A program made the position numbers and the translations under genes. Below the pieces are notes generated by a model that saw only the letters and a list, made by a program, of their open reading frames with translations, was not told the DNA's origin and ran no database searches. Positions 1-21,776 of a stretch of DNA of 64,000 nt are shown here, piece by piece; position 1 is the stretch's first letter, and the number at the start of each line of letters is the position of its first letter. Source of the DNA: Selaginella moellendorffii (lineage: Eukaryota > Plantae > Lycopodiophyta); the NCBI RefSeq assembly GCF_000143415.4, contig NW_003314323.1, forward strand, positions 1-64,000, given 5' to 3'.

Positions 1-19
1 CAGGGCATCAGTATGCATT

Positions 20-1300
20 TTGGGTCAAAATTGCATGAGCCCACACGCTATAAAGTTTACCTGTACCAAAAATAGAAACAGCTTTATTTACTTGGGAATT
101 TAAGTGGTTGAGGCATTTTTAAACTTACAAACACATGCCCTACTTACATTCCTTTGGTTGCCTAAAATTCAAAAATATTATAAACCTTTCTTTTTGCATT
201 TTCAATGTTTTCAATTATGGTTTTTGATTTTCGTAGGACCAGCCTAGTAATCTATTTGCATCCCGTCATGTTTATAGCTAGCTTTCGTTCGTCCCCTTCG
301 CTAGCCTGAGATACATCTGCTCGGCATCTGCCTCTTACAGCATTTGCCCAGAAAGGGCATCTTTCTTCACGCAGCATTTGCCACATGTTTAGGGTTTAGG
401 GTTTAGCAATTCAGTAGCTTGATAAACATGCAAATACAGAACTTGATGCAAAATCCTTTGATATGTCACAATGCCCCTAGGACCATAAACACATTTCAAT
501 AGAGAGGGTCCTTTCATTTCATAACTCCTTACGTAGATCTTGGTGAAACCAGAGTTAGTGAAGTTAGTTTCTTGTGATCCCGCATCTGATTGTGATGTCC
601 CTTTGCAGTTTCGATGGAAAGGTCAATGCACACCAAACTGTAAAATCTTGGAGCAAAATAACGGTCGGATCTATGGCAAATGCCCCTGAAACATTGTAAG
701 GCTCGTGTGGTCTCATGTGGTGTCCGATCGAGATGCTTCTTTGCAGGGTCATCAAGAAAGACATTGTATACCATTCTGTAAAATCTAGTTGCGATCTAAC
801 GGTTGAATCTCCAGAAAACTCAAAAAAATCTCGCGCGTGTCAGAATATCCTAGGAATATACTCCTATGTGCCCCTGAAAATGACATGCGGCCCCACGCCA
901 TTCAAGAGATAATGCCAGATGACGCCGAGAATTTTTTGGTGCATTTTTTGGGTTCAAAATTGCATGAGCCCACACGCTATAAAGTTTATCTTTGCCAAAT
1001 AGAGAAAAGTTTATCTGTGTCATGTGAGGTAGTTACAGTCCTTTGTGCTTGGCATCTGCCTCTTGCAGCATTTGCACTGAAAGGGAATTTTTCTCCATTC
1101 AGCATTTGGCCCTGAAAATGGCATGCGCCCACACGCCATTCAAAGAATAACGCCACAGGACGCCTGGATTTTTGGGTTTAAAATGTTTAGGGTTTTTTAG
1201 GTTTTTTCAAAATATTTTGGGTCCAACGTTTTTTGGGTTTCTTTGGTTCAAAATTGCATGAGCCCACACGCTATAATATTGATTTGAGAGAAAAATAGAA
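20..1300 (+). repeat. Degenerate tandem/dispersed repeat units (~240 bp) each carrying the 22-bp dyad
   Basis: TCAAAATTGCATGAGCCCACACGCTATAA occurs near 25, 954 and 1248; CCCTGAAAATG-motif-TCAA near 872 and 1110; GGCATCTGCCTCTTRCAGCATTTGC near 323 and 1051. Confidence 0.85.
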
Positions 1301-1621
1301 ACAGATAGAATTTCTTTATTTAGCTGAACATCTGCCATTTTTGGAAATACAAGATGCTTTGGAATATCCAATCATGCATGGTATAAATATAGCGAGGGTA
1401 TTAAATGATATCCCAATCATGATCTTTCTTTTGGATTTCGCGTGCATGCAGTCCGAGGAATGATGACGTTGCGGATTTCTTTTGGATTTTGCGTGCTTGC
1501 ATGCGCGCGGCAATCCAGAAATTAATGGTGGCGCCCAAGTAAGAGGAATGATGACGCGGCGGGATTACCAACCGTTGTGACATTTCGCGCGTGTGAGGTT
1601 AGGTTTTGCATTTTGCTTTGT

Positions 1622-1780
1622 ACTCGCGCTCGCACACTCGCGCTCGCGCTCGCATCACACTTGCGCTCCCGCTCGCATCGCGCTCCCACTCGCGATCACG
1701 CTCACTTCTCTACAGGTTTCTCGTGTGCATCGGCGTCCACTCGCGCTTGCATCACACTCGCGCTCGCATCGCGCTCGTGT
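1622..1780. repeat. CpG-rich low-complexity (CTCGCG/CTCGCA)n tract
   Basis: Repeated ACTCGCGCTCGC units upstream of the large gene. Confidence 0.75.
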
Positions 1781-2245
1781 GCATCGGTGTCCACTTCAAG
1801 ACACACCCAGTTTGTAACTTCGCCGCCAACTCCGCCGCCCACTCCACCACCCACACGCAGCCCACTTGGCGTCCCGGGAGATTTCAGCACCACTCTCCAA
1901 CTGTAAGTGGCAGAGTAGCCTTGCTGCTACGATCCGCTGCACACACAGTGCACATTCGCCAACGAGTCCGGCCTCGATTGTCACGGCCTCCATTCGGCTT
2001 CAAATGGTAAGTCTTTTAGACCAAGTAGAAAATGGCATGAGGCCACATGCCATTCAGTAGCAACATTGGCATGCACCGATTGGGCTCTCGAGTGCAGTCC
2101 GGTTACAGATGGCGTGTAGCCTCACGCCATCTTAGGATGCAGCCTCAAGACATCTGATGCAGTGGTGAATGGCGTGTGGCCTCACGTTATTTCCAGCTGC
2201 TAGCTTTTCATCTGTCAGCTCTAATTGTTGTGCATTTTTGAACAG

Positions 2246-5200
2246 GCGAGGAATTGCATTCTTCTTCCAGCCACTGTCAATGTGGATGCAGAGAAGGGGG
2301 AGGAGCTCACCAGTTGGACTTTCGGGATGGAAGGCGAGGATCTGATGCTGTACAACACAGATGGTGGGAGAAAAGAATGCATGGGGATCCTCATCCAAGT
2401 GACAGACACTCCATGCAGTTCCATGCAAGAATATGGACTGGCACTTGTGGTAGAGACAGCGTCCGCCTTCAAGATCCACCTTGCACATCCTAGCGGCTTC
2501 CCGGAGGGGGGCAGCGGCTATGAGGAATTCCTAGAGGGAGCTAGGGAGAGGTTGTCCAGGAGGCCCACAATTTCAAAGACGCTGCGGGTCTATGAAGATC
2601 ACATGGAATCCACGGACCTCACCTACGGCGATGTTCAAAAACTATATTCCAACATTGAGCCGTTGAGAGTGCCTCCAGTTTGCGAAGCGAAGGGGAAGGG
2701 GGTCGATCTGGAAACTACCCCGAAGCAGAAAAGGGTGGTCAAGCTCAAGCCGACGTCCGACTCTGCTGCTCCAAAAAAGAAGCTACTCGGTGATGCCATT
2801 GCCTCGGGTTCGAACACTACACCCACCAAAAAGAAGAGCCGCAAAGAGCAGAAAGAGCAAGAAGAGGCAGCAAAAATCGTCGCAGATAATAGTACTTGTT
2901 ACTATTCCAACAAAGTATATACAATCGATGTGAGCCGTATCGAGATCCAAAGCAAATACAACCACAGGCTAGTATCTGATGAGTGGGTGGAGAAACTGAA
3001 GCAGAAGATGCTGGCAAGTCCAGTAACACCCGACATCGCAGACGTGATCCCCTACTACCGAACAATGAAGGGCGAGACGAGGTTTCCAGACTTGATCAAT
3101 AGGAAGGTGTTGGACGATCAGAACATCCGGTTCTATGCCGTCTCCGGGCAGCATTCTAGCTTGGCGATGCAACAGATAGTTGTGGATATTATGGTGGGCG
3201 AGGAGGTGAAGAAAGTCTTCAAGACAAGAGTTGTCCGCCTGATAAAAGGCAACTCGCCCCTCCGATCTATCATATACATCTCCCACGCGCAAAATGTCAA
3301 GCAAGAAACGTGCTACAAATCGGGTCTGCACGAGACATTGGCACGAACACGGAAGCTCTGGGTTCAACTGAAGAAGCCACAAAAACCAGGACAAGGACGT
3401 GCACTAGCAACTAGCGCCTGGCAGGTAAGCCTCGTTGCATGTGGCATAGCATGTGGCCTCACGCCATTTCCATTGCAGGAATTCTCGAGTCTTCTCTCGA
3501 AAACACTGGGGGTCAATGACACACTCAGCATCCATAACATTCTACTCGCGACAAAAGTTGTTTTTGACAAATGGGTAGATGTGCTGAGGAGGTACCATGA
3601 TGGGGAGTTGCTAAACTCAATGGGTGTGGAGGACGGCCGGAAGCCCAATGATTTGAAGCTCAACGCCTTGCGTTTCTCGCGGTCTCTAGACGACGACGAC
3701 CTTCTGACAGTGGCTAATGCTCTTCTACGTGGTGAGGTAGTCTTCAACAAGACCAAAATGACTCCCGGCCATATTGTGACATACGAGGACTTGTGCACGA
3801 CTCTGAGAGCTCGTGCGCTATTGAAGGATTGGATCTTCGAGCAAGTGGCCGTGGCGAGGGTGAGCATCGACACCACGCAAGAGATGATGGAAGAGCTGGA
3901 CTTGTCAAATGAAGACATCGACGAGTACGTGAAGGGGGCCCCCAAGTTCATCGATCTGCTGCGGGATGCCACGAAAAGTAAAGCTGAGAAGTTGGATCAG
4001 TATCCAAATTTCATTAAGAGGGATATCGACCGCCGGCTTCAGAAACAGCTCGACCCCGCAGCAGAGGCCTATCGAGAACCTTACCGGGTATACGTGAATT
4101 CGGATGAGGATCAAAGGTGGAGGAGCATCGTTTCCTGCGGAGATGAGCAGGTCAAGAACATCTTTTGTGTGATGGACTTCACAAACGAGGAGATCACTCA
4201 TGCAGACGAAGTCAGCTCCATCATTGACTTAATGGTGGGACTTGCGGAGGTGGAATCTTCAGTCCACTATATGATCTACGACTCCGAATCCTATCACAAG
4301 TTCTGGAAGGCCTTGAACGAGGTGAAGGCTCGGTTGAAAGGCAAGGAGATGCGGGAGATCCATGGGATAATGGCTAAGAAGAAGATACCGACGAATGTCC
4401 GCATCTTCATAGTCGCCCTTGTTATTGGTCCTGCAGCAGAGTGGGACTGGAGTGACTTCCCAGCTTCGTTCAACAAAGCCGATCGAATTGATCTGAGGGA
4501 GGTCAATTTACCCGTGCCTGAGGAACTGAAGACGGCTATGGAGCTTTCGAATCCAAAGAAAGCTCCAGGTGCAGCATGGGAAATGCTCAGCTGGGTCTTC
4601 AACGCAATAGCGGGTGACTCCAAGGGCAAATGCGTTGTCGAGTACAACTGCGGCGGACTATTCTTTCGAGCCGCACTACTCAAGGGTGTCCCGTGTGTTG
4701 CGGTGACAAACTCCATTGAAGAGGTGACTTCAATGGAGCATATAATTACAGTTGCCAAAGAAAAACAGTATCTTCTCTACGAACCTGGTGAGTACGCACT
4801 TTAAGTTTAAATGTTATCTCACAAGCTCTGTATGCAGGAGCGTGGCCACCCCCAGATGCTGAAACGGCGTTAACAGCTACTGATGTTAGGCCGAGGTCAC
4901 AACCTGCACAAGGTAAGGTCACGTGAGGCCTCACGCCATTTTGATTATAGATCGTTGTGAATATTCAGACACGAGGACTGAAAAGCGCACTGGTGGCGCG
5001 TCGAAGAAGGACAAACAGACAAGCAATAGGAAAAAAGGAGGTACAAATTATATTTGCAATGGCGTGTGGTCTCATGCCATTCCTTGCAGGAGACACTTCT
5101 TCAAAGGCAAAACAGGCAAGCACCAGCCAAGCTCAAACTGACAGTGGTCATAAAAAGCGAAAGCACGTTGGACAGTCGTCGGGATCAGAGGCGTTTGATT

Positions 5201-7609
5201 CGAAAAGGAAGAAGGGCAACGAAAAGATGATAGGTAATGCCTCGCGGTTATGGCGTGTGTGCTCATGCCATTCATTGCAGATCAAGGGCTGAGTGAAAGG
5301 AGCCAGTCACCACCTTCTGACTCAGATTCCTATGGCGGACTCCCCTTCCCCAATCTCAATGGAGAGGTACAATGGATGAGGGATGCTTTTCAAGTCAGGG
5401 CCACGTTTTTCTCATCTCGTCGTCTTCGAAGGGTGCAAGAACGTGCAGAAACCATGTTAAGACAGTCGGGTGAGGATACGGTCCTAGGTCACGCACTAAA
5501 ACAGGCTATGGATGTCTTGTATTTTGAGATGGAGACTCGGCCAGATGATTTTTCCAAGATGGTCCTGGAAAAACAAGCAATCCAGCCTGAGCAGCCTATG
5601 GAAGAAATGCAAGAGGGGGATGAGGAGCCAGAGAAAGATAATGAGCAGGAAGAGCAGAAGGACGAAGAGGAGGACAAAGAAGAGGAGGACGAAGAAGAGG
5701 AGGACGAAGAAGAGGAGGACGAAGAGGACTTGGATGGTCCTCACAATGGTGACGATCACAATAACGACGATGACGATGATGACGATGATGGCCAGCCTGA
5801 GGTGGCCAAAGAGCAGCGGAGGAAGGTCATACAAGACAAACCATCAGGTAAATAATAGTACATCCATTCCTAACCTTTTACCATTTCTAACATTGTCCAT
5901 GTAGGTCGCAGAAGAAATGGTAAGTAGAGATTATTCAGTTGAATTAAGATACAAACTCTAGCCTTTAGTGTCGAGGAAGGATAGTGCCAAGCAAGGGTCG
6001 AAACGTATGTCCAATCCTTCAGAATCAGCAGTGCGCCCAAGTGATATCGGTCCTAGTTCCTCAATAGCAGTTGATGGTAAATACAGTATAGTCGATTCAA
6101 TGTGCTAATGAGTTTGTTTTTAGTTGCACGGGAGGATACCATCTCAATCGAAGGGAGATATTTGGACATGCATATGGATCCGCCAGTGGACTCTACTTGC
6201 CTGCAAGAGTCATCAGAGCTGGTGGAGGCTACTATCCATATCAACGCCAAGCAAGCTGACCACGCTCCACTTGATGCTGCCCATACCACTGAGTCAATCT
6301 TGTCCACGTATCCAACTGACGGTGACCAGGCGCCATTGGACCCGCATGAGGCCGCCCCAGCCGCCGAGCCGGTCGTATCCTCATTTCCAACGTGTGCCCA
6401 ATCGTCTGACTACGCGCCGTTGGAACCTCCCTACACCGCCCCTGCTGCCTGTTCGGTCATGTCCACTTTGCCAACGGAGGCACCAGCTGAAATGGCGTGT
6501 GATCACACGCCATCGGAACCACCCCATGCCACTGTTGAGCCAGTTGTACCAGAGTCTACAGCTGAAATGGCATGTGCCCACACGCCATCGGATGCGATTG
6601 ACCCCACATTGCAGAGGAGAGTATTTCCGCCCTTCACGTTTCCTCGACCAAAACCCTCTGAACGACCATCGGGAGCACCATTCGCTAATATTGTAGATGG
6701 TAAAATTGACTTGTACCATTTTTTATGCTAACGCATTTCATTTCAGAGTCACGGCGAAAGTACTGTATCGTTTTTGATCTGAACGGTGTCCTTTTCTCCC
6801 ATGAGCGTGGCTCGTCCTCGAATGTCACTGCACCCTCCAAAGCCTGCGGTCGCAAGTTGGTCAAAAGAGACAGATTCACATTAATCACACGGGAGAAACT
6901 GCGGGATCTAATAATGACCATGCGACACTTAAAACAGAGGGCCGGGTTCAATTTGCAATTGGGAGTTTGGACATCCATGATGCGCCACAATGCATTAACG
7001 TTGCTACAGATGATGCACGATCAGACGCGAGTAATATTACCATTTGACTTTCTCCTAACGCAGGAGGATTGCTTGACTATGGTCCATGTGAGGGGTAGCA
7101 AGCCCATCTTCGTCAAGGCAGAGGCTGTAGTGATGAACTGGACTGCTAGGTCAAGTGAAATCCTCATCATCGATGACTCGCCGATTAAAACTGCAGCGAA
7201 CACGCACACATATGCAGTGCACCCCATCTCTTGCAGTATGGAAACTAGGGAGAAGAAACCGTATGTTCTGGGGGACCTTGCAAAACGGCTTGAAGCGATG
7301 GTGATAGAGAACCGGCCAGTCCAGGAGGTGGCTGCAGAAATCAACCAAATGGCAGATGGAACGGTATATCAGAAGCCATTTGATCGGACAGACACCAGTC
7401 ATCATTTATGGCATGTATATTGTCTAGCCAAGCACTATCCGCATCTCCATAATCTGCTCAACCGGATGGGTTCTTCGACCACTGAACATGAGCGTGGACG
7501 TATTAGAGAAGAGATGGCATTACTATTGGGTTTAAATCCTGATAGTGTGGAGAGTGATGAAATTCCAAGATTATTGTATAGGCGTTGGAGGCAAAAAATA
7601 ACAGTCTAA
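2246..7609 (+). CDS. Multi-exon protein: ParB/Srx-like domain + degenerate N6/N4 DNA MTase-like domain + acidic tract + FCP1/HAD-like domain; 5' exons unresolved
   Basis: GT-AG introns at 3425-3478, 4788-4837, 4913-4950, 5041-5089, 5234-5280, 5848-5904, 5920-5968, 6077-6123 and 6700-6746 join the separate ORFs into one open frame of ~1,640 codons. Motifs: FYAVSGQHSSLAM; GKCVVEYNCGGLFFRAALLKG; CIVFDLNGVL...IIDDSPIK. Confidence 0.72.
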
Positions 7610-8040
7610 GATGGCATGTATTTATTTAAAAATGTAACTTATTATGGCATGGGGTTCCATGCCATTGTATTAATATTAAAAGACAATTCTTTGAGAGGAT
7701 TTGCATTATACTAGAAGTGTTACAGCATGTTATTGGAAGTCTACGAAGTTGTTTTATTAATAAGGGGAAAGTAAAGATTGAATGGGGACTTGGGCTCCAC
7801 CTAGACTCGGAGCAACTGAGCCAATATTAAAAGGATGGAAAGAAATTGGACGACGATGACAAGGAGAAGAGAGAGGTGAAGCAGTGAGAAGTGATTGAGT
7901 AGACATTTCCTTGTTTAAAATAAAATGGCATGTGCCTCAATGCAGTTGAATTTTGTTATATTTATATACTATATAAAGGTTTGGAAACCTTATTTTACAA
8001 GTGGGATAATGACAATTCCCACTTTAACGAAATAGAGCTT

Positions 8041-11000
8041 GGATCCTTTAGCCTACGACACCTCAAGGAGTTGGTTCCTTACAACTCCACCACCCATAGA
8101 AGAAGTTCGATGCCCACATCAAACGTCTCTTTTATCCTACGACTTGTTGACCATGTCTTCGGGGGCATCCCCCCACTTAGTGGTGTGCCTAAGTTAGCCT
8201 CCTTGGCCAAGAGCCCATGACAACGAAATATAGATGTCCCTATATCCCTCACCTCACCACGCCCTAGTATGGGGTCGGGACTTGAACCCAACCTTGCTTT
8301 ACTAGGGGGTTGGGACTTGAACCCAACCTCCGTAGAATATGTCTACGGATTCGACATCCCCGCAGGGAGTCAGGCATAGTTCCCTACACCTAATCGACCT
8401 AGCTAACCCATGCTAATTAGCTTACCTTTAGCGCGCCTTTGGGTCCCAACATGTGTCATTGCTCAACTTCACAAATTGATACTTTCATTGAACTTTGCAT
8501 AAGTACATAGAGTTATGCCTTGCAGAAATTCCTCCACTAGATCTCGCACGTTTGCTAGGTTCTCCTCCAATTCCCATGTTGCTTCGCAGTGTGGAAATCC
8601 TTTCCACTTCACATGGAACTCTCTCACTTTGCATCATTTTCACTTATTCTTGCATGCATTGAGGATGGCCTCCACTTCGTATTCTTCTTCCTCTTGGATA
8701 ACCTCAAGTAAAGGTCTTATTTGGTCCTTACGAAACGGGTCCTCAAAGTACGGCTTAAATAAGTTCACATGGAACACTGGGTGCATTTTCCCCATCTCTC
8801 AAGGAAGTCAGAGACGGTAAGCCACTTTACTAATTCGTGCCTCAATCTCGTAAAGCCCCACGAACCTGCTTAAGAAACTCAAGATCAATTCATTTATAAG
8901 AATATATGCATTTTTACCTTTGGGTCAACTTCCAGCTAATCCCACTTGGTAGCCTGAGGTTCTTAGTGTTCAACCACACCTTCTCCCTAGCTTGGAACTC
9001 TACATCCCGGCGCTTCTAGTTCGTGTACTTAGTTTGCCTTTGTTGAGCCCGTTCTAAGGAATCCCTCACTAGATTCCAAATGTTGAGCCTTTCCACCGTG
9101 AATGCCTCCACTACGGGTAACTCTCCATGATATTCGGCCATGCCAAGTTCCATAGGACCTTCAATAGCTTGCCCATTGATCACTTCCCATGGATTCACCC
9201 CGATACTCGAATGTGGTGAGTTGTTATAACACATTTTCGCAAGTCCCAAATGACTTACTCAATCGTTCTGGTCTCCCGAGACATAGCATCGCAAATAATC
9301 CTCCAGCTGCCTATTCACCCTTTCTATTTGTCCGTCTGTCAAGAAGTGTTAGTGCCATCAAACTTGACTTAATACCCAATACCTGTCTGTGGGTGATAGG
9401 CTGTGCTGAATTTCAACTTGGTGCGATACTGTTCCAGGAGAGTTCTCCAGAACCTACTGATGAAGATCTTATCTCGATCCGAGATAATCTCTTTCGGCCT
9501 TCCCCGCACTTGAACCACTTGTTCGAAGAACAGCTTTGCCACACCTTCCGCATTCACTTTCGTTGTAGTGGGTATGAAATGTGCCATCTTCGAAAATCAG
9601 TCCACCACCACGAATATCGCATCAAACCCCTCACTTGGGGGGAGTCCCGTGATGAAGTTCATCGTGAGACATTTCCACAGATGATCTGGAATTGGGATGC
9701 TTTGTAACAAGCCCCCACTAGCCTTAGTCATGACTTTGACCTGCTGACATGTTGGACATGTCTTTTACATAGTCTTGGACGTCTTTAGCCATATCTGGCC
9801 AGTGATATTTCCTCTTAAGTAAGCCCATCGTCTTGGGCACTCTGCTGTGTCCCGCAAGAGGTCCATCATGACACTTTTCTAAGGCTACCTTCCTTAGTTC
9901 CCCTTTTGGAACATACACCCTCGTTTGCTTGTAATAAATGAGTCTGTTGTGTTCCATATAGTCTGTTTTCTCTTCCGTTGGTAGCTCACCTCTTTGGTGA
10001 GCTTCCCGTGCCTCTAGATTCCTCAGCAACACTTTTTGTGCTAGACCATCATTCTCATATGCTGTCCGCACATCATCCCAAAAGGTTGTTGTCGTGCTGG
10101 ATATTACTAACTTCAAGCTCGCTTTTTGACTTAGCGCATCTACCACGATGTTGCTCTTCCCAGGCTTGTACAAAATCTCGCAATCAAACTCAGCCAACGC
10201 ATTGGCCCACCGACCCTGTTTCCCTCTCAGGTCAGGTTGTGACAACTGTTTTGTTGCCATATTGTCCGTGTAAACCTTGAAGTGTCTCCCAAGGTAGTGT
10301 CGCCACTCCTTGAGCGCCTTGACCACCGCAAACAATTCCTTCTTGTGGGTAGGCCACTTTCGTTGAGCCTTGTCCAACTTCTTCAAGAAGAACACTACTG
10401 GATGGTTGTCTTGCTTCAAAACTGCACCCAACGCAAAGTCTGAAGCATCCGTTTCTACCTCAAAGTCTTTACCAAAGTCTGGTAACGCTAACACGAGAGC
10501 CTTCCTCAACTTCCTTTTGAGGTGGACAAATGCCGCATCACATTCTGCTATCCATACCATCTTCCCTTTTCCCATTTGGTCCGTTAAGGGTAGGGCTACT
10601 CTCGAATAGTGTCTAATAAACTTTCGGTAGTAGTTGCATAGCCCCAAGAATGCTCTTAACTCGTGTACATTTGATAGTCACTCCCAATTCTGGATTGCTT
10701 GGACCTTCTTAGGGTCCACCTTGAGCCTATTCTTGCCCACCACATGCCCGAGAAACTTTACCTCTTGTTAAGCAAAGTCACATTTGCTCTCTTTAGCATA
10801 CAGCTGGTGTTCCCTTAGTTTCTCAAACACCTTTGTCAAGTGTTTGGCATGCTCCTCTAGCGTTTTGCTATAGATCAAGATGTCGTCAATATAGACGACC
10901 ACAAAGTGATCCAAATAAGGTACAAAGATGTGGTTCATCAACACTGAAAATGTTGCTGGCACATTGCATAGCCTGAAGGGCATCACCAGAAACTCAAAGC

Positions 11001-14000
11001 TCCCATACCTTGTTTGACAGGTTGTCTTCTCGACATCTTCCTTTGCTACCCTGATTTGGTAGTATCCTGACCTTAGGTCAATCCTTAAAAAGTATTTTGC
11101 CTTTCCCAACCTATCGAACAGGTCCTCAATCCTTGGAAGGGTACTTGTTCTTCTTTGTATACTTGTTAAGCAATCGTTAGTCTATGCATATGTGCATAGA
11201 TCCATCTTTCTTTTTCACAAATAACACCGACACCCTATATAGCAACTTGTCAACCTAACATACCCTTTGTCCACCAACTCCTCTAGTTGGCGCTTGAACT
11301 TCTTGAGTTCCTTTTCGTTCAAACAATAGGGGGGAAAAACCACCGCCTCAGCACCCTTGACCAGCTCAATCTTATGTTCTATCGGTCGTGTGGGGGGCAA
11401 CCCCGCTGGTAGCTCCTCCGGCATGGTATCTTGGAATTGATCCAACACCCACTGGATCACTAAAGGTACTTCTTCTGTTCCCATTTTTTTGTCACTCTTC
11501 ACCGAGAGTAAGCACAAAAATGCTACCTTGGTTCCTTTAGTGAGTTGTCCTCTCGTGGACACCAGGTTTAAGCATGAATCTTTGGCCTTGCATTGCCCTA
11601 CCTTTAGATCTTGGGCCTCCACCCTGGATCTTCTTCCTTGGGCATTCGCTAGTACCACAAGGTTCCTACCTTGTCCATACAGGGCTACCACGAACTGATT
11701 AAACCAATCCATCCCGAAGATCACATTAAATCCCGCCATGTCCAACACGGTGAAATCCATGTCTACTTTTCAAATCCTTACTTCGACTTTCGCTTGTTAA
11801 AATACCTCATCGGTGCTTTGGCTACCTTGAACAAACTCTATAGTCCTTGGTTCGCCTAGCCGCTGCACCATTAGTCTAGTTTACCAAACTATGTCTACAG
11901 CCACAAAATTATCCGAAGCACCTGTGTCAATAAGGATCTTAACAAAACTACCTCCGAGCTTCCCTCGAAGGGCTAGTAGATGTCGCGAACGACTCTATAC
12001 CAAAGTTGCTCGTGTAATGAGTAACTTTGAGCTAGAGACTGGATCACATACCTCATTTTGGATTTCATTTGACTTAATGGCCATATTGGCTCTGGCCTTC
12101 TTCGGGTAGGGACATTCCTTCGAAAAGTGTCTCGCTTCTCCACAATTGTAGCACACGTGCTGCTAACCGACTTGACCTTCTTATCTGTGGCTTTGTCTCT
12201 TTTTTCTTGACTCCCCCACGTACTTGCTTGTTGGCCACCAGATTTGCCTTTCCGGAACCCCGAAGACTCATTCTTAGAAAAACCCTTTTTGAATTTCCCT
12301 TTGCTATATGTTCCCCTTGGTTTGGCCCCTTTGCTAAATGTGGACCTCAACCCCGTCGTGTTCCCCTTTCGCAGGTTATCATTGAAATGCACCTTGATGG
12401 CCGCATCCAACACTTCTTTGTAGTTGGTCGGGTTTCAACACATCACCTCACTGAGAGCCCAAGTTTGCAAGCCTGATATGAAGGCATGGAACGCATCCAT
12501 ATCCCCCATATCCGTGACAAGTATCCTTTTTGCTATAAACCCATTCACAGACTCCTGAATGGTTCTGGTTTGCTTCAGCCTACTCAGCTCATCTCTTAGA
12601 TGCAGAGTAGCATTTGGAGGAATGTAAGTCGCACGGATCCTCGCCTTCATCATTTCCCAAGTGGCCACCGGTCCTTTGTTGGCCTCTATCATTCTCCACC
12701 AAGACTTGGCATTATTTGCTAAGTATGGTTTTGCACATGGGACCTTCTCTGAGCTCGGTAACTGCAACGCTCGGAAGTAGTCCTCCATATCATAAAACCA
12801 ATCCTCCACCACCTTATAGTCGTTCACTCCCTTGAAGACTGGTGGGGGCTTTGGTTTATACTTGGGAAATGCCTGAGGGACTGATTCCACTTCGGTCTGT
12901 TCGACTTTGTTTGGTTTTGCCTCAGTCCCTGTCGAATGATCCGCACCTTCTGCGCTACCAACATCTGCAGTCTTTTGCCTTTTCTTTTGCTTCTCGTCAC
13001 ACTTTAGGTTGCGTATGAGAGTCTCTAGCAGGGCATTGGTCTGTGCCAATTGTCCTTCTAGAATGTCCAATCGCGCCTTGGACGACCGAACCTCACCACC
13101 AAAATCCTGTTTGGAAATTTCCTCACTGAAGTCCTCCTCATGCAAGGATTCCTCATCCATAGCCTCTTGTTCAACCGGAGGCTCCAGCTCTGGAAGAGGT
13201 TCTGTCTCCGCCTTGGTTCGTTTCCGCCCTGCCTTCGCCATCTCCCAGCAATCCGCCTCTATCCTTCGCTAGAACTGAGGAAAAGGCTCTAATACCAAAT
13301 TGTAAGCCACAAATTTTTCATTTCCAATTTGCCAACTTACCTTGTCTATCCGTCCAACACTGCCTTGGCTTTTGCTAAGTTCCCTCGCCAAGGTTCCCGC
13401 CTACAGTACCAGCTCCTACTTGGTCCTACTTGGTTTCAGCTACTTACTGCACGAGCAACAGAGTGTTAGCCATCCATCCACAGATTCCTAAATCTCTCCC
13501 AATCCCCCTCCCTGGTTTAGACTGGACTTACAGTTCGGCTACACTCCCCGCAGGCACAAGCAGCCAAGCACACCAAGCCTCCAGGTTCTTAACATCCCTT
13601 TGTACCACAAGACTTGATCATGAGACCCTCTAAATCCCAAGTCTTGGGTGCAACACTTGCTTTGGGATGCCAGGGCGAAACACTGTGGCATAATGGCCCA
13701 GTATGGGTACCTCTACCCCCCCTCTTCCATCCTGAAAGGAAAGCCCAAGCCCCTAAGAAGGGCAAAGACCAATGAGTTGCAAGGTACTCAAATGGGGCAC
13801 CACTCCATATGAGCCAGGAGCACCGCAGTCGGTTTCCCTTTTGGGAGTGGGAGCTGCTCTTGAGCACTTCCTAGGGTGGCCCCTTTGGCACCACCCAAGT
13901 CCATGCTCACTCCCACCCAAGGCCTTTTGGCCCTAGTCTCAACCTCAAGTCAGTTTGGAAGCACCACTATAGAGTTCCTTCAAAATTGGTTCTTGAACCT

Positions 14001-14459
14001 TACTATCCCTACTATACTTTTGGAACCCCCTGTAGCCCCCCCCCTAGGAGCGCAAGCTTTGGCTTGACCTATATTAGTACTCGGACTCAGTCTCGGACTC
14101 GATCTTAGACTCAATCTAGGACCCGACTTCGGATTCGGTCTTGGACTCGATCTTAGACTCGATCTCGGACCTGATCTCGGACTCGACTTTGGACTCAATC
14201 TCAAACTCGGTCTCGGACCCGATCTCAGATCTCGGTCTCGGACCCGATCTCAGATCTCGGACTCTGTCTCAAACTTGGTCTCGAACTCGGTCTCCGAGTC
14301 GGCCTCGGACTCAATTCCGGACTCTATCATGAACTCAGTCTCAAAGTCAGTCTTGGACTCGATCTCAGACTCAGTCCCATCCGATGAACTCTTTGTCATT
14401 TCGGTCATGCTTTTGGGGATCCTTTACCTTACGACACCTCGGGGAGTTGGTTCCTTACA
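8041..14459 (-). mobile_element. Decayed Ty3/gypsy chromovirus LTR retrotransposon
   Basis: 5' LTR 13301-14459 (TGTAAG...CTTACA). iMet-type PBS 13286-13297. gag 12435-13241, zinc knuckle, protease IDTGAS, RT YIDD (10768-11109), RNase H/INT (9724-10647). Chromodomain YEVEAIL..VKWKGF..EATWE at ~8520-8690. PPT at 8084-8097. 3' LTR truncated to 8041-8083. Many stops and frameshifts. Confidence 0.93.
14079..14372. repeat. ~12-bp minisatellite (CTCGGACTCGAT-like) inside the LTR
   Basis: More than 20 degenerate tandem units. Confidence 0.85.
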
Positions 14460-14460
14460 G

Positions 14461-15705
14461 AGAGCTTCCAAATCAGGGAAAGGAAAAGTGTCCCTCTATA
14501 AAGCTACACTCTCCGACCTCACTAGATCTCTTGAGCAATCATCAAAAGCTTTGGCTGCACAGGAAGCAAGGTTTGCTGGTACAAGTCCAAACTTAAACAA
14601 GCTTCGAGAGCGGGTTGGTAGAAGGAAAACACCAGCAATAGGGTCTAAGATGGTGGGGGAAGTTGTTATTGGAACTCTTATGGAATCAAGTTATGAACCA
14701 CTTGGGGGCATGAGGACAATGCGTTTGAAGCATCGACAGACATTTGATGGGCCCAACATCACTCCTTCTAGCTTTCACTGTCCAGAGTTTGACTACCATT
14801 CTGTTCCACAACACCGGAGAAAAACTAAAGAACATGGAGTGGAGGAGGTGCCAATTGTTACACAAGTAAATCCAGTGCTAAAGGTTGAGAAGATTATTAC
14901 TCGTGAGCCAATTTTTCATATCAACTGGGCAATTTGAAGAGTCAATACCAAAAGTAATGCATGTTGCTTTGGAATGATTAGGAGTCGAGGCCAGTGTCTT
15001 GCATTTGTGTGCTCAGGTTCAAGTTCTTCAGCAGTACCATGTTTTTGGGGCTGTTGAGATCTAGGGGTAAAGGGCTATCAGTCAAGTTGGATTTACTGTT
15101 GTGGGACTGATGTTACTCATACAAACCGGATCCACAACTCAATTATCTCAAAGCCAAATTCTGTGCTAGAGGAGTGGCCAGTTGAGCGAAGCTACAATCT
15201 TTTGAAAGAAGAGATTGAAAGTTTAGAGAGAGCTGGTTTCAAATTGAAGACTTCCTCAAATGTTCTTATTGATACTGTTATGCCACCAATGTCAACAATA
15301 GACCAGCATACATGACTAGCTAGAAATGGGAAGGCTGTACAATATATATCTTCCATTTCAAAAGGTGCACAAGAGAAGATCAAACTAGCAAAGGCGTTGA
15401 AATGCATAATCACAAAGATAAATTACATCAGTGTTGTGGCTAAGGAATTTGTTGTTGTGACTAAGTCGTCAAAGGGTACGAGCTACACTATCAGAATCTA
15501 TGAAAATCCATCCTATACCTATCCAAATTTTACACAAAGGGAGAATAGAGGAAAGGTATATTTAACCTGCAAGCACATTTATTACATTTTTATGCAAGAA
15601 CTAAACCAAGATCTTAAGGTTGACTATCATATCCATCAAGCAAACTTTGCAATTGCAAAGTTTGAGATAGTGTTCGGATCTATATTTATATTTGTATTTT
15701 ATTGA
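14461..15705 (+). pseudogene. Degenerate SWIM zinc-finger gene remnant, probably transposon-associated
   Basis: GTSYTIRIYENPS...FTQRENRGKVYLTCKHIYYIF resembles a SWIM finger with the first cysteines lost; upstream frame interrupted by stops. Confidence 0.45.
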
Positions 15706-15799
15706 TCAAATTTACTTGGAAATATAGATTAAATCAAATTTTGAAAAATGAAAAAATGTTAGTTTGGGACAAACCAATGTTTTCCTCTAATTTTATAGG

Positions 15800-16546
15800 A
15801 ATTTCAGTTCAAGATTGTGTTGAAGCCTGGACGAAGTCATAAAATGCTTGATCATCTTTCAAGGTTGCTAGCTTCTACTATGGATGGAATTACTGGAGTG
15901 GATGATGAGCTTCCAGATGCTCAACTTTTTCAAGTAGTTAGCGAGGAGGAAGTGGATGTAGAGGTTTTCCAAGTTGAAGCAATACCTGAGTGGTACCATG
16001 AGGTGGCACAATTCTTGTTAAGTGGCAAGTATCCTTTAGATTTTTCTAGTAAAGAGAATAAGCAGTTACTTCTTCAATCTCAGTGCTTCACTTTGATTGT
16101 TAGGCAACTATACCATATGGGAAATGATGAAGTGTTGCAGCAATGTGTGTTAGCTCATAAGGTACCTGAGGTTATTTTTGCATATCATGACTCACCTTTT
16201 GGAAGACATTTTTGTGAGGAAGTTACAATGGAGTTGGTAAAAAGGACAGAATATTAGTGGCCGACTATGCACCAGGATATTTCAAAGTATATGAGAGGTT
16301 GTGATCCATGTTAAAAGACTAAGAAACCATCAAGAAGAGATATAATGCCATTGCAGCCACTTTTGCTAGTATTGCCATTTGAGAAAAGGGGAATTGATTT
16401 TATCAGGCCTTTTCCAGCAAGCAAGCATACTCATTGCAAGTATGTGCTAATTTATACTGACTATGTGACCAAGTGGGCCAAAGTAAAAGCATTGAAGGAA
16501 GATATAGGCAGAAAAGTTGTTGAGTTTTTGTACAAGCAAGTTATTA
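15800..16546 (+). mobile_element. Ty3/gypsy pol fragment (RNase H end-integrase)
   Basis: KPGRSHKMLDHLSRL, YHDSPFGRHF, PFEKRGIDFIRPFP, DYVTKWAK with stops. Confidence 0.8.
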
Positions 16547-17183
16547 TCTGAAGAAGTGCATGCAAGGTCTAACAGTGAAGGTGTTTTGAACATATAATGC
16601 ATCATATACTTTGAAGACATATGTGACTTTTACTTTGTCAAGGCCAAAATGATCTGACAAATTACTTGTTACAGTTGAAGGAGACGCTTGGTGCAACTCT
16701 TAACAAGAAAACTGCAGAATACTCCTGAGCAAATAAGGAGGTAAGATAACATTCTGTTTGGTTAGCACTTTGTTGACAGGTCGCACTTCCATGTAACGGA
16801 CAGTATCCAAGGGCCATAGTGCTCAGATGGAAAGATTGGAGTCAAAGATTGCAGAGTTAAAGGTCCGTTTTTCTTTATGGTTTGTTTGAGGCTGACGCTT
16901 TGCTATTGGCAGACACTGTGTGAGAAACTTGCAACAGACTTGGGGAAAGTTTAAAAGGGCAAACCTCCAGCTAAAAGGCCTCCAGTAAGTAGATGATTTT
17001 TACGTTTCTACTTTTATGATACTGACTATTCATGTAAATTCCAGGTTGGAAAAGAAGTTGGTTCAAAGCGAAGATGACCTTGGATCTGTCCTCCGTCAAA
17101 GAAGATCTCAAAACCGTGGCGCTGGGAACGTCAAAGATCAACTAACTACATGGATCCTCAAATAACGGTTGCTCATTGAGAAG
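16547..17183 (+). pseudogene. TOP1: DNA topoisomerase IB 3' gene fragment with introns (copy a)
   Basis: [36 protein letters not shown](Y); stop and frameshift present. Confidence 0.85.
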
Positions 17184-17464
17184 GTAACCAGGCACTTCGT
17201 ACTTTCATTTCTTTTATTTCTCTTACTGAGGCATGCTGTGGCAGTGGCACAAGCAGCTTTTCCAGTGACTTGACCATGGTATACCATGCTCAACTCAGGA
17301 GATTTGGATCATAGGTTTTTAATTAGTCATTGCTGGCCAAATTCGCGTCGGAGAGAAAAACTTGGAAGAAGGTGACTCCCCCCTGTCAATATAACGTCAA
17401 CACTTGCGAGACTCTATCTCAGTCTTGATGATCATGGTCTCACTGTGAGAACTGGAGGGTAACG

Positions 17465-19384
17465 TCACAGACGAGTGGAGCTGAAGTAGGATCCAGGTAG
17501 TTGCAAGCTGAAGCTTCTGGAGCTACCATCACTTGAAGGTGGTGGCAAGTCAAGAACGTCTATGTTACCTTCGAGCATATCCAGGACGTTTCTCATAGAG
17601 GGCCGGATTTCTGCCTCGAGTTGGATGCACCACAGTCCGATTTTCACGTACCTCTCAGCATCCTTGAGCTCCAAGCCACTGCTAGTGCTGGCGAGATCAT
17701 TGTCCAGGAGCTTGTCGTCAATAAGCTCGACGATGTTGCCACTGTGAAACATGCTCAGCGCGGTTTCGCCTAGGAAGCGCGGTTGTGAGGAGGAAGAGGA
17801 GGAAGAGGAGGATGGAGGATGGAACTGGATGGTGCGCTTGGAGCTGACGAGCTCGAGCAGCACAATTCCAAAGCTGTAAACGTCGGTCTTGTCCGTGACT
17901 TTGGTGTGGAGCCACTCAGGTGCCATGTATCCGGGAGTTCCTCGCATGACAGTCACCACTTGGCTCTTTCCCCGCTCGGCAAGCTTGCTCAGGCCAAAGT
18001 CGGAGATTCTGGCTCGTAAGTTCTCGTCCAGGAGGATGTTTTGAGGTTTGATATCCAGGTGAAGAACTTGCTCCCGGCATCCTTCATGGAGGTATGTGAG
18101 TCCTCGAGCAACATCTATCGCGATTGAGTGCCTCTGATTCCAGTTTAACAGCAGATTTGCTGATCCGCCACCTTTGTCATCATCGTTCTTGGTGAAGATC
18201 CACTTGTCCAGTGATCCATTGGGCATGAACTCGTAGACAAGCAATGCAGCTGGTCCCTGGATGCAAAATCCCCGGAGCTTTACCAGGTTGAAGTGGTGAA
18301 TGCTGCCAATGGACATTACCTCGGCCTTGAACTGCGAGTGTCCTTTCGACGAGCCTTGGATCTCTACGTCCATCTTCTTCACAGCAACGAGGCTCCCATC
18401 CGCAAGCTCTCCTTTGAAGACGGATCCAAATCCTCCAGCTCCAAGCGTGAGCTCGGGATCAAAGTTTCTAGTTGCCATCTTCAAGTCGTGATAGCTAAAC
18501 TGGTGCGGAAGTATCTCATCGAGCCTCATTCCTTCGATGAGCGCTTGCTTTTCCATGCGCCTCCTCCGAGATCTTCTCCACTTCCTGGTTGCTACAAAGA
18601 TTACGACGCTAAGTACCACCCCGGCCACAGCGCTTGCTACCCCAGCGATCACTCCCTCATAATTCTTTTTGCTTCGAATGGACTGTGGAAGATTACTATC
18701 AATGACATTCCAGGTGATATTTCTCAAGATTCCAATGCCTGGATCATACCCAAGCTGCCTCCACACTTGCTCGTTCGCAGCCACAGCGTTTGGAGCACAG
18801 GGCTCCGTGAACGAATGATCCCTGAGACACCCGGCTGGGGAGTAGCATTCAGCCACCATTCTAGCGACCGCAGTCCGTCCGTTTGGAGCTAAAACTTGGA
18901 TGTTTTTCGAGCACAAGCTTCGGTCTTGGGTATACCATCCAGTGGCGAGCGCTGCCATGGGTTCCATATTCCATTGCGAGGATGTGCACGGCCTGAGAGA
19001 CCCCGGATTTGAGAGGTTGAAGCTTGTGACATAGAGGACGGCATTGTTGGTCCCTTGTAAATTTGCAGAGCAGATGAAAGTCCTGTAAGCCAGGCCTGGG
19101 ACGCAGCAATTCGGGCAGTCTGGAGCGATGGTGGCATTGAAATTGACTATGGAGGTGGGCTTGCAAGTTTCGGAATCGCTGAGATATGGCTCGGATTGAT
19201 TGCTCGATAGGTAGCAGGATGAATTGCGGAGTGAACGGTTGCCGCTGAGCATGGGCTCCGGGAAACAAAGAGATCCATTCGGGCAGTCGCTTAACGAAGA
19301 ACATACCTGTTGTTGGGCTTGCGAGTGGAAGCTCCTGGTGCTACATAGCACGATCATGAAGCACATGAGAATCGACACCTCCAT
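17465..19384 (-). CDS. Kiwellin-ectodomain receptor-like kinase A (non-RD), intronless, 639 aa
   Basis: Signal peptide; kiwellin/DPBB motifs MAALATGWY...CSKNIQV...NGRTAVA...EC...GC...EPC.PN...VWRQLG; TM segment; kinase GAGGFG, VAVKK, HLDIKPQN, DFG, GTPGYMAPE. Confidence 0.92.
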   Translation of the reverse strand: MEVSILMCFMIVLCSTRSFHSQAQQQVCSSLSDCPNGSLCFPEPMLSGNRSLRNSSCYLSSNQSEPYLSDSETCKPTSIVNFNATIAPDCPNCCVPGLAYRTFICSANLQGTNNAVLYVTSFNLSNPGSLRPCTSSQWNMEPMAALATGWYTQDRSLCSKNIQVLAPNGRTAVARMVAECYSPAGCLRDHSFTEPCAPNAVAANEQVWRQLGYDPGIGILRNITWNVIDSNLPQSIRSKKNYEGVIAGVASAVAGVVLSVVIFVATRKWRRSRRRRMEKQALIEGMRLDEILPHQFSYHDLKMATRNFDPELTLGAGGFGSVFKGELADGSLVAVKKMDVEIQGSSKGHSQFKAEVMSIGSIHHFNLVKLRGFCIQGPAALLVYEFMPNGSLDKWIFTKNDDDKGGGSANLLLNWNQRHSIAIDVARGLTYLHEGCREQVLHLDIKPQNILLDENLRARISDFGLSKLAERGKSQVVTVMRGTPGYMAPEWLHTKVTDKTDVYSFGIVLLELVSSKRTIQFHPPSSSSSSSSSQPRFLGETALSMFHSGNIVELIDDKLLDNDLASTSSGLELKDAERYVKIGLWCIQLEAEIRPSMRNVLDMLEGNIDVLDLPPPSSDGSSRSFSLQLPGSYFSSTRL

Positions 19385-19606
19385 AGTTCAGTAAATACCA
19401 CTCTTCTTGGGCATCATGGAAGTGTCTCTTCGGCCCACAAATTGAAAGTTTGGCAGCTGGCTGCAGGTCAGTGTCAAGGTTTTTCTGCCCTGGCAGGACA
19501 CTAGCAGGCCTGCCTGGGTCTAGCTCCACTTGAGACGGCAAAAGACTTCAGACTTTTTCTAGAGCTTTTAAACCAGTTTACCCGCGACACGTTTGCAATT
19601 CCAGCC
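19385..19606. promoter_or_regulatory. 222-bp divergent intergenic region (putative bidirectional promoter)
   Basis: Separates the two RLK start codons; homologous copies at ~22623-22924 and ~43426-43736. Confidence 0.65.
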
Positions 19607-21403
19607 ATGGATCATCGCAGCAGCACTTTCTTCGCGCTCGCGATGATCTCACTCGTCAGCGCCACCGCGCAGCATTTCTCCTCCTCTTGCGGCACGAGAT
19701 GCGACTCTAGGCGCGATTGTTCTGGCGGCCTCGTTTGCAATCCTGTTAGCAAGACCTGCGATGGCGATCCAGGAGCTAGCACCCTTTCCTGCCCAATTCC
19801 CGGCTGCGAGCCCGCCCAGAGCTTCATCTACTCGAATGCCACCGCCCACGATCCCGAGTACTGCGTCGACAACAACACCTACCAGTTCTTCAATTGCTCG
19901 CCTAAAGAGCAGTCTCTCAACTTCGCGGCTCTCTACTACACCGAGCTGGAGGGAATCCCCACGGCATGCAATCGGTCCACGCCTTACAAGAACTCGGAGC
20001 TCCTGGCAAACATGGCCACCGGATGGTTTGCCAGTGGATCCTCGTGCTTCAAAGAGATTGTGATCACGGCAGAGAATGGGATGAGCGTCACGGCGACGGT
20101 GGTGGACATTTGTGCATCAACGATCGGGTGTAGCCCATTGACTGGATACTACGAGCCGTGCACGCCCAGATCGCTGGGAGGGACGAGAGGTGTGTGGGAA
20201 GCGCTGGGGCAGACGTATTTTGATAATGTGTTGCAAGTCACTTGGAAGTGGAAGGGCGAGGATTCGAAAAAACGCACTCTTTTCATTGCACTGGTTTCTA
20301 GTGGAGCGCTCGTTGCCTTGGCGCTCTTAGGCATTTTGTGGTGGAAGGTCGTGAGACGGTCCAATGCCGCCAAGAACAAGCTCCATCTGGGGGATCTCAC
20401 GGATGCCCCGCGGCAAATCAGGTACCAAGAGTTGTATCGAGCGACCAAGGGATTCCAGAGCAAGGTGGGAGAGGGAGGGTTTGGGACTGTGTTCAAGGGG
20501 ACGCTGCCCAGCGGAGAGATTGTGGCGGTCAAGAGGATTGGCGGTGGATCGCGGCAGGGGGACAAGCAATTTAAAGCGGAGGTGATGTCGATTGGCAGCA
20601 TCCATCACCTCAATCTCGTCAAGCTGGTTGGATTTTGCCTGCATTCTCGCCACAACTTACTCATCTACGAGTTCCTCGCCAATGGCTCGCTGGATAGATG
20701 GATTTTTGCCAAGGACAAGTATCTGCCCTGGGCAACCAGGCTTTCCATCGCGCTCGACGTCGCTCGAGGGCTTGCGTATCTCCACGATGGATGCCGCGAG
20801 AAGGTACTCCATCTAGACATCAAGCCCCAGAACATCCTCCTGGACGAGAAGATGAATGCCAAAATCGCCGACTTTGGATTCTCCAAGCTCATTGACAAGG
20901 ACAAAACTCATGTCGTGACAGTCATGCGGGGTACGGTGGGATACATGGCTCCCGAGTGGCTCCACTCTCGTGTGACGGACAAGACGGACGTCTATAGCTT
21001 TGGGATCGTCCTCCTGGAGCTCGTCTGCTGCATGAAGGCCGTGGAGTATCCCTCGGACTCACAGATGGACGTTGGGTTCCTCGCCCAGACTGCTTTCAAC
21101 AAGCTCGACAGTGGAAACGCCATGGACTTGGTGGACGATCGGCTGGTCAAAGCCGAGGACGGTGGTGGTTTATCCTTGAGTGGCTTCGAGAACATCATCC
21201 GGATCGGGCTATGGTGTGCACAGGAGGATCCTTTGCAGCGACCAACGATGTCTGTGGTGGTGAAGATGCTCGAGGGTGCCATGGATGTGTTGGCGTTCCC
21301 TCAGCTGGAGAGACCCGCTGCACAGGATTCATCGCTCCTGGTGAGCAGCAGCGAGAGCTCGGGATTGCAAATCTCCATCTCGGTCTCGGACTTGGCTCGC
21401 TAA
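19607..21403 (+). CDS. Kissper-Kiwellin-ectodomain receptor-like kinase B (non-RD), intronless, 598 aa
   Basis: Signal peptide; kissper-like CGTRCDSRRDCSGGLVC...CDGDP; kiwellin ANMATGWF..C...NGMSVTATVVDIC...GC...YEPC...VWEALG; TM segment; kinase with HLDIKPQN. Confidence 0.92.
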   Translation: MDHRSSTFFALAMISLVSATAQHFSSSCGTRCDSRRDCSGGLVCNPVSKTCDGDPGASTLSCPIPGCEPAQSFIYSNATAHDPEYCVDNNTYQFFNCSPKEQSLNFAALYYTELEGIPTACNRSTPYKNSELLANMATGWFASGSSCFKEIVITAENGMSVTATVVDICASTIGCSPLTGYYEPCTPRSLGGTRGVWEALGQTYFDNVLQVTWKWKGEDSKKRTLFIALVSSGALVALALLGILWWKVVRRSNAAKNKLHLGDLTDAPRQIRYQELYRATKGFQSKVGEGGFGTVFKGTLPSGEIVAVKRIGGGSRQGDKQFKAEVMSIGSIHHLNLVKLVGFCLHSRHNLLIYEFLANGSLDRWIFAKDKYLPWATRLSIALDVARGLAYLHDGCREKVLHLDIKPQNILLDEKMNAKIADFGFSKLIDKDKTHVVTVMRGTVGYMAPEWLHSRVTDKTDVYSFGIVLLELVCCMKAVEYPSDSQMDVGFLAQTAFNKLDSGNAMDLVDDRLVKAEDGGGLSLSGFENIIRIGLWCAQEDPLQRPTMSVVVKMLEGAMDVLAFPQLERPAAQDSSLLVSSSESSGLQISISVSDLAR

Positions 21404-21776
21404 GTAGCTTATTAACTTATTAAGCAGGTCAATCGAACGGCAATTTACATATATTTTTAGAATCCTCGATGAGAAACCAAAAGGTCTTGAGGTGGACGAT
21501 ATTCATTCAGTAGTTTATAAGCAGTTTCGATGATCTGTTTTGCTGAACTCCTCCAGATCGCCACACGGCTGCCAAACCTCACAGGAAGAATTGTAATTGT
21601 CTAAAAATCACCAACCTGCTGCTTCTCTTTCTTTTTTGCGAAAGACCAATGCTGATTTCAGAATCAGAACAATGAATTTTAATTATAGAATTCCTGCTGC
21701 TAAGAGATAAAAATAGGTGAGCTGTTTATTAGTCTCAATAGCAAACCAAATCTTATGATATGCAAGCATTTCCAAT

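Follow-up and report, generated by a model that had tools for sequence, protein, structure and literature searches.

A high-copy mobile element of Selaginella moellendorffii carries a predicted ParB-like accessory gene and a dispersed 22-bp dyad that may be bound by its product

The contig NW_003314323.1 of the lycophyte Selaginella moellendorffii (RefSeq assembly GCF_000143415.4) was analysed over a window of 64,000 nucleotides (nt; positions 1 to 64,000 of the forward strand), which begins with the right-hand 8 kb (1..8040) of a young, high-copy mobile element whose left end lies outside the window. This element, likely a DNA transposon, carries an accessory gene for a protein with a predicted ParB-like fold and, scattered through the same 8 kb, fifteen copies of a 22-bp dyad. 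The best explanation found is that the ParB-fold protein binds the element's own dyads as a dimer, shielding the element from host silencing, a reading drawn by analogy and held with somewhat less than even confidence. Its parts differ in strength. The pattern of the copies argues strongly for a two-fold site of fixed spacing that would be read by a dimer, and the ParB-like protein is proposed as the reader with moderate confidence, because it comes from the only visible gene with a fitting predicted fold.

The dyad, ATGGCRTGWG-NN-CWCAYGCCAT, occurs 15 times at three or fewer mismatches, always within 30-7665, and not once in the other 56 kb of the window, which includes host genes, while 100 shuffles gave 0.02 matches on average and one at the most. 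Five copies match the consensus exactly (2032, 5059, 5250, 6492, and 6567), and a profile built from the 15 dyads scores these same copies, in what is a circular comparison, at 25-36 bits, against 5.8 bits for the best site outside the element. Five dyads lie upstream of the gene in block-duplicated units (30, 880, 959, 1118, and 1253; 30..1274) and seven in predicted introns: 2032, 2109, and 2169 in intron 1 (2032..2190, within 2007-2245), one at 3446..3467 in a 54-nt in-frame intron (3425-3478) where relatives are gapped, and 4918, 5059, and 5250 (4918..5271), one apiece in three introns of 47-56 nt. Two more are coding (6492..6588), where they read EMACDHTP and EMACAHTP in a 75-nt duplication inside a low-complexity linker, and the last, at 7644, is downstream (7644..7946, with a decayed copy described below). 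Thus, 13 of the 15 are non-coding under the predicted gene model. An earlier note on this DNA had claimed some 15 copies confined to the element and had placed them in just these upstream, intronic, coding, and downstream positions, all of which is confirmed. However, the copy with which it closed the array at 7946 has five mismatches and one good half-site, scores 11.9 bits, and is better described as a half-decayed sixteenth copy (7925-7946). In other copies of the element, contigs of the public DNA run X1 jump back from 1150 to 926-931, which suggests that these may hold an extra upstream unit with two dyads.

The sequences around the dyads are mostly unrelated. The 20-nt flanks are at least 50% shared in 5 of 120 pairs, with a median of 32%, and these five pairs make up three block-duplicated groups (30/959/1253, 880/1118, and 6492/6567). 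The claim of unrelated flanks stands for the other pairs, and the number of independent contexts comes to 11 rather than 15. Elsewhere, a motif scan found no site in viral contigs, five single sites in prokaryote genomes against 8.7 expected, and 58 single sites in metagenomes, and none of these 63 prokaryote and metagenome loci had a second dyad or a match to the element. A site of this kind could also belong to a dimeric host transcription factor, collected by the element for its own expression: dimers of the NAC family read spaced palindromes with a CGT core, and several dyads contain GCCCAC-like words of the kind known as TCP sites. We consider this very unlikely, given the lack of dyads in the 56 kb that includes host genes, half-sites that at 10 bp are long for such factors, a spacing one base over that of NAC, and a fitting fold encoded by the element itself.

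The variation among copies resembles that of a protein-binding site. Within the element, head-to-head pairs of half-sites occur 13 times with one gap and once each with other gaps, and the former gap is not seen in the remaining 56 kb. C5 and T7 do not vary in any of the 32 half-sites. The arms are not perfect complements, position 9 being complementary in 4 of 16 copies and position 6 in 7 of 16, with the pair 9-14 unpaired in 9 of 13 dyads. Covariation between arms, measured on 13 of the 15 dyads (two identical to copy 30 were left out), is absent, with a score of 0.103 against 0.120 in shuffled data and 416 of 500 shuffles as high. The arms vary independently and, thus, each would be held to the consensus and not to its partner. 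At positions 5-6 of the half-site, the 22 half-sites of the 11 independent copies read CG in 12 cases, CA in 10, and TG in none (p 0.002, on a background of 582 CA and 540 TG). Since decay of methylated CG would yield CA and TG equally, one direction has apparently been selected against. Fixed spacing, the lack of covariation, and a CG that varies only to CA together fit a protein-binding site and not a hairpin, in agreement with the earlier view of the dyad as a candidate site for a dimeric protein. Moreover, the occurrence of CG or CA, never TG, leads us to infer that one strand of the half-site tolerates T and, by extension, 5-methyl-C, so that a site with methylated C on that strand would still be read.

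The dyad could, instead, be a hairpin in RNA or single-stranded DNA, e.g., in splicing, or a neutral by-product of short duplications. In three dyads the end lies 9-11 nt ahead of a splice acceptor, block duplication accounts for three groups, and of the three deepest X1 deletion joints two take out a dyad or part of one. At these joints, 4925-4986 and 5247-5305 (depth 2,055 and 7,455, less than 1% of copies), an intronic dyad is lost in part or in whole. Nevertheless, the missing covariation, the mostly unpaired position 9, and a loop of two bases speak against a hairpin, 5 of the 10 predicted introns have no dyad, and the spacing and invariant bases are kept in 11 unrelated contexts, all of which leaves such an origin scarcely probable.

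The accessory gene (2004..7609, plus strand) is predicted to have 11 exons and 1,636 stop-free codons. Its donors were chosen by inspection; of 7,680 combinations of acceptors, 64 proved stop-free, and the chain adopted has nine introns of 47-57 nt in addition to intron 1. The likely start is the ATG at 2004, upstream of the 239-nt first intron, and not position 2246 as formerly claimed. A single open frame, 2225-4801, reads through the 54-nt intron at 3425-3478, a stretch absent from relatives. Run X20, guessed to be RNA, crosses two predicted introns unspliced, which is taken as uninformative. Just upstream of the gene, CG-rich short repeats of the CTCGCG type (1600-1800) are possibly a promoter. 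The 38 bases at 1902-1939, upstream of the start codon, are common to a far more abundant sequence, with contigs of X4 and X20 running on at both sides; its flanks appear to resemble the 3' end of large-subunit rRNA, although Rfam did not report this stretch and searches for the source were negative. The Rfam scan gave three sub-threshold matches only, taken as chance.

The predicted order of domains, obtained from a structure model based on 15 sequences (predicted local distance difference test, pLDDT, 72; predicted template modelling score, pTM, 0.56), starts with a ParB N-domain and a helical domain, continues with a methyltransferase fold of the beta class, and closes with an acidic linker followed by a NIF domain. 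The N-domain (2903..3310, plus strand) is assigned to the ParB/Srx fold by VIA-align to Caulobacter ParB 7bm8, with Z 10.7 and a root-mean-square deviation (rmsd) of 2.4 A over 98 residues. The best 11 VIA-align rows are ParB, Noc, PadC, pNOB8 ParB, and KorB, Foldseek returns the same families at E-values against PDB of 0.007 or weaker, and the nearest named Atlas clusters are DUF3723 (0.95-0.96) and ParB_N (0.92). A helical region follows (3317..3844, plus strand, broken by the intron 3425-3478) that aligns with the DNA-binding region of ParB, Noc, and KorB: 198 of 208 residues for KorB 8qa9 (Z 8.9, rmsd 5.8) and 175 of 190 for ParB 6t1f (Z 9.2, rmsd 5.3). The claim of a ParB-like gene is, thus, supported by a predicted ParB fold that reaches into the DNA-binding region.

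The third domain (4073..4759, plus strand) is predicted to have the fold of beta-class DNA methyltransferases, with CcrM 6pbd aligned over 195 positions (residues 392-632; Z 8.8, rmsd 4.7). A relative in Riccia (P0057) matches PF01555 below cut-off at E 6e-4, the order of motifs is that of the beta class, with an invariant D651 before the S-adenosylmethionine motif (VVEYNCGG / VLDFFSGG), and Atlas places the domain near N6_N4_Mtase only below 0.9, which is a lead. The catalytic motif of this class is (D/N/S)PP(Y/F). It is degenerate in seven of seven aligned rows, reading DFTN here and DLTH, DAAH, DSAN, DLRR, DATT, and DANS in the others, and the fold is probably non-catalytic. Beyond an acidic low-complexity tract (5590..5800, plus strand), a NIF (FCP1/SCP-like HAD) phosphatase domain (6761..7207, plus strand) matches PF03031 at 25.9 bits against a curated cut-off of 21.8. 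The first motif of NIF/FCP1-like HAD enzymes is DxDx(T/V), with both aspartates; in DLNGV the first is kept and the second is Asn, and a later DDSP is kept. Searches of PDB, NCBIfam, and PHROGs by sequence did not name the ParB and methyltransferase parts. The earlier domain reading is supported for the ParB-like part, by prediction, and missed the methyltransferase-fold and NIF domains.

Box II of the ParB-like part reads SGQHS, invariant in eight aligned sequences, and DGQHT and SGLHS in two others, so that the arginine of GxxR is absent. A change of the box II arginine abolished nucleotide binding (10.1101/2025.10.10.680097). A true parS/ParB system, partitioning or tethering extrachromosomal copies of the element, would account for a ParB fold with a predicted DNA-binding region beside repeated palindromes. 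However, the element is integrated in the nuclear genome and its gene has introns, the box II arginine is absent, enzyme-like domains take the place of a short dimerisation domain, and no gene for a partner ATPase (ParA) is found among the frames of 1-8040, the left part being outside the window. Segregation, one of the functions that the earlier note had offered, is for these reasons extremely improbable, and anti-silencing would, by analogy, be the likelier function.

That the DNA is a mobile element is borne out by its high and flat read depth, a defined right end, and insertion into another element. The depth of X1 over 1-8100 is 6.4e5-1.05e6, about 7.5e5, in comparison with 270-1,224 over the low-copy stretch 15786-21500 and near 260 for single junction contigs. 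This suggests a copy number on the order of 10^3, with 3,000 as a ceiling, since summed contig depth overstates copy number. Runs of 3-4 million letters yield the element in contigs of 2-3 kb at depth 86-102. Among the X1 contigs, 25,349 of 45,668 are at least 99% alike, and the copies are, therefore, considered young; contigs of X4 differ from the element at 16 of 2,910, 8 of 1,393, and 5 of 1,699 letters. Over 1-9000, 94 of the 146 differences between the window copy and the X1 reads are A/T in place of G/C, a bias that, with the frame intact, is as expected of methylated DNA.

The right terminus (8021..8040, plus strand) ends in GAGCTT at 8040, as contig ends and junctions indicate: an X14 contig stops exactly there, X1 contigs link 8040 to 12031, 12874, and 8906, and an X6 contig continues past it into other DNA. 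The first base after the end is G, G, T, A, or T, i.e., not fixed. Two subterminal DNA hairpins (7976-7991 and 7999-8024; 7976..8024) are predicted by folding 7960-8040 with DNA parameters (-10.1 kcal/mol, a value that comes without a shuffle control). Next to the terminus lies a gypsy-type long terminal repeat (LTR) retrotransposon (8041..14460, minus strand) with gag, reverse transcriptase, RNase H, and integrase domains, LTR ends, a primer site, and a purine tract, whose 3' LTR was cut by the element after 43 bp; over 8041-8083, 39 of the 43 bases agree with the other LTR.

Other assignments were weighed against this evidence. The ParB-like gene as an extra frame of the adjoining gypsy, with depths alike in four runs, was rejected, given the cut LTR and the junctions of 8040 with more than one place in the gypsy. 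The element itself does not end like an LTR retrotransposon, since it closes with GCTT rather than with a TG...CA LTR, joins many places of the gypsy, and has a gene with introns. Helitrons end in CTRR at the 3' side and insert between A and T. The end GAGCTT, with G, G, T, A, or T as the next base, goes against this rule. Replitrons, which are marked by an HUH Rep gene and short direct terminal repeats, would fit in host range and in the hairpin at the right end (PMC10288648), and a search of that paper's seven supplementary files with short terms found nothing that links the element to them.

Relatives of the protein were recovered by a full profile scan, which gave 16 matches, 14 of them forming a family (P0003 and P0007 were left out as repeat-driven); word-indexed protein searches with the protein itself and with the family alignment gave no match. 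The named members belong to S. moellendorffii, the liverworts Calypogeia fissa and Riccia sorocarpa, as well as one fern, Adiantum nelumboides; no seed-plant name appeared among those of the 17 proteins looked up that carry a name. Together with the short introns and telomere-like words of the DNA, these relatives would point to a non-seed land plant as the host. In Adiantum the gene is multicopy and near-identical, with one cluster of 20 members, at least 15 of them on separate contigs. The same domains through to NIF are fused in the proteins of Adiantum (P0033) and Riccia (P0057). Related loci were confirmed in none of 66 candidate stretches in metagenomes and none of 11 in viral contigs. 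Of the Adiantum proteins compared, a single gene model, P0034, begins with an additional stretch of 348 residues (1-348), which we take, by eye, to resemble pieces of a hAT-type transposase; they have no Pfam or PDB match.

Comparable proteins are described in algal transposons. In Sola1-1_Ec32 of Ectocarpus, an accessory gene encodes ParB-like and N4C/N6A methyltransferase domains, self-binding and modification have been proposed, and similar green and red algal proteins are cited (PMC12477816). By description, the likeness lies in an accessory gene of a transposon in which a ParB-like domain is fused to a methyltransferase fold; however, the host is a brown alga, the methyltransferase is predicted active, and neither a NIF domain nor a binding site is described in the available text. 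In red algae, PAG3 (and PAG2) of Plavaka combines a ParB-like domain with a 2-oxoglutarate oxygenase, beside tandem inverted-repeat arrays proposed as its sites (10.1101/2025.02.11.637652). This resembles, again by description, the present case, in which a high-copy element encodes a ParB-like domain together with a predicted domain of the modifying type and has inverted repeats near that gene, but there the second domain is an oxygenase and the arrays are tandem, whereas here single dyads are dispersed and a methyltransferase fold and NIF are found. Plavaka-type termini are not evident in this element. Fusion of a helix-turn-helix of the ParB kind to another methyltransferase clade has been reported in chlorophytes and chytrids (PMC4738411), and DUF3723, which names the nearest named Atlas clusters, is conserved cargo of fungal Starships (10.1101/2021.12.13.472469). 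Like DUF3723, the present protein is carried by a mobile element, although Starships are fungal, and neither an alignment nor a Pfam DUF3723 match was obtained for this protein.

Anti-silencing has precedents. In VANDAL elements of Arabidopsis, the introns and other non-coding stretches carry short motifs to which VANC binds, and VANC removes methylation (PMC5735166). Here, too, an accessory protein encoded by the element occurs with short motifs, mostly non-coding, many intronic, and multiplied by duplication; however, VANC motifs are of 8-9 bases and non-palindromic, and its binding and demethylation are shown, whereas here the binding is putative. The domains of the VANC type are DUF1985 and DUF287, and a Pfam scan of four frames, taken to E 1, gave no match to them. 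VirB, of the ParB family, binds a palindrome and counters H-NS (PMC10653881). The ParB/Noc/KorB/VirB proteins share with this one a predicted N-domain with a helical region and a palindromic site, here a candidate one, and VirB is an anti-silencer; they differ in that the GxxR arginine is absent here, enzyme-fold domains are appended, the gene is eukaryotic and contains introns, and the site is of 22 bases. The system is one that would work like the algal ParB accessory systems and VANC, without being of the VANC family or a canonical cytidine triphosphate clamp.

In the proposed mechanism, a methylated C on one strand would resemble T and still be read, so that silenced copies could be found by the protein. 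Bound at spaced sites, it would act on local chromatin or on the polymerase through the methyltransferase fold, which is probably non-catalytic, the acidic linker, and the NIF domain, in the manner of VANC on VANDAL and of VirB against H-NS. Short duplications would give rise to new dyads, which would persist where they are tolerated, in introns and in the low-complexity linker. The self-marking system suggested in the earlier note keeps, in this way, its mobile element, its predicted ParB fold, and a dyad that varies like a protein site, with anti-silencing as the function that by analogy fits best.

Two other uses of the dyads compete with this proposal. The same protein may bind them as a self-repressor or transposition cofactor, dampening its own gene or compacting the element so that its ends meet: 8 of the 15 dyads are located around the likely promoter and the first intron, the best full-length matches include KorB, which regulates plasmid genes and has a ParB fold, and in a phage ParB the residues for nucleotide binding are dispensable for activating a partner enzyme (PMC13229309). 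However, the tolerance for CG and CA and the spread over introns match the anti-silencing precedent, and there is no cluster of dyads at the visible terminus, the nearest good copy being 375 bp inside, so that this alternative appears unlikely, if a serious one. Alternatively, the dyads may be bound by a further product of the element, e.g., a transposase or a TnpA-like protein encoded in the unseen left part, the ParB-like gene being a passenger or acting elsewhere. Transposases and TnpA activate their own copies via clustered motifs (10.64898/2026.08.24.746577), the left part is outside the window, and the N-terminal extension of P0034 looks, by eye, like pieces of a hAT-type transposase. 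TnpA motifs, however, cluster at termini, whereas the dyads run through the ParB-like gene, and the P0034 extension, without a Pfam or PDB match, belongs to a single model; we regard this as quite unlikely.

Several points weigh against the protein as an anti-silencing reader of the dyads. The model has a pTM of 0.56 from 15 sequences, the Foldseek E-values are weak, and the alignments through the helical region are loose, with rmsd of 5-12 A. Clamp sliding is doubtful because box II lacks the arginine needed for nucleotide binding. The co-occurrence of the gene family with a dyad array rests on one family. The placement of 7 of 9 intragenic dyads in introns, which offer 485 of 5,585 positions, is an inflated enrichment, three copies being in one intron and the donors having been picked with the motif known. 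Moreover, the sign of the effect, activation or repression, follows by analogy only, and the unseen rest of the element may encode another binder.

Further along the window, outside the element, intronless fusion genes of kiwellin and kinase (Pfam KWL1 and kinase), two on opposite strands, occupy 17468-21400, and partial copies are seen by eye near 28200-29400 and 36900-37900. A duplicated small frame, at 21780-22451 (minus strand) and 43930-44376 (plus strand), contains cysteines, begins in a signal-like way, and has no match in Pfam. A separate, lower-copy repeat (14461-15785; X1 depth about 5e4) has, by eye, a SWIM-like Cys/His pattern with no Pfam match.

Self-marking by ParB-like accessory proteins is already in print as a hypothesis for algal transposons: two genome papers of 2025 propose that such proteins bind and modify their own transposons, with no test in the parts of these papers available. 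In the limited literature searched, neither a land-plant description of such ParB systems nor this set of domains was found. What is new here is the occurrence in land plants, the set of domains, and a dispersed site defined well enough for the hypothesis to be put to the test. A bolder extension, which we consider possible and rather on the unlikely side, is that a family of land-plant transposons acquired a ParB module from bacteria, which would serve them as the VirB of eukaryotes. Its dimer would load on methylated or unmethylated dyads, spread, and bring a dead methyltransferase fold and a phosphatase of the polymerase-tail type against silencing, and liverwort, lycophyte, and fern would each have their own dyad co-evolving with the DNA-binding helices, i.e., programmable anti-silencers unrelated to VANC or TnpA. 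Proven anti-silencers encoded by transposons are few, namely VANC, TnpA, and the AtMu1 transposase, and the present element combines a gene that is intact, a site defined to 22 bases whose variation is informative, and copies that are near-identical and number about a thousand. If the proposal is true, a bacterial partition fold would have been reused against plant silencing, and the system could serve as a sequence-targeted tool for the epigenome.

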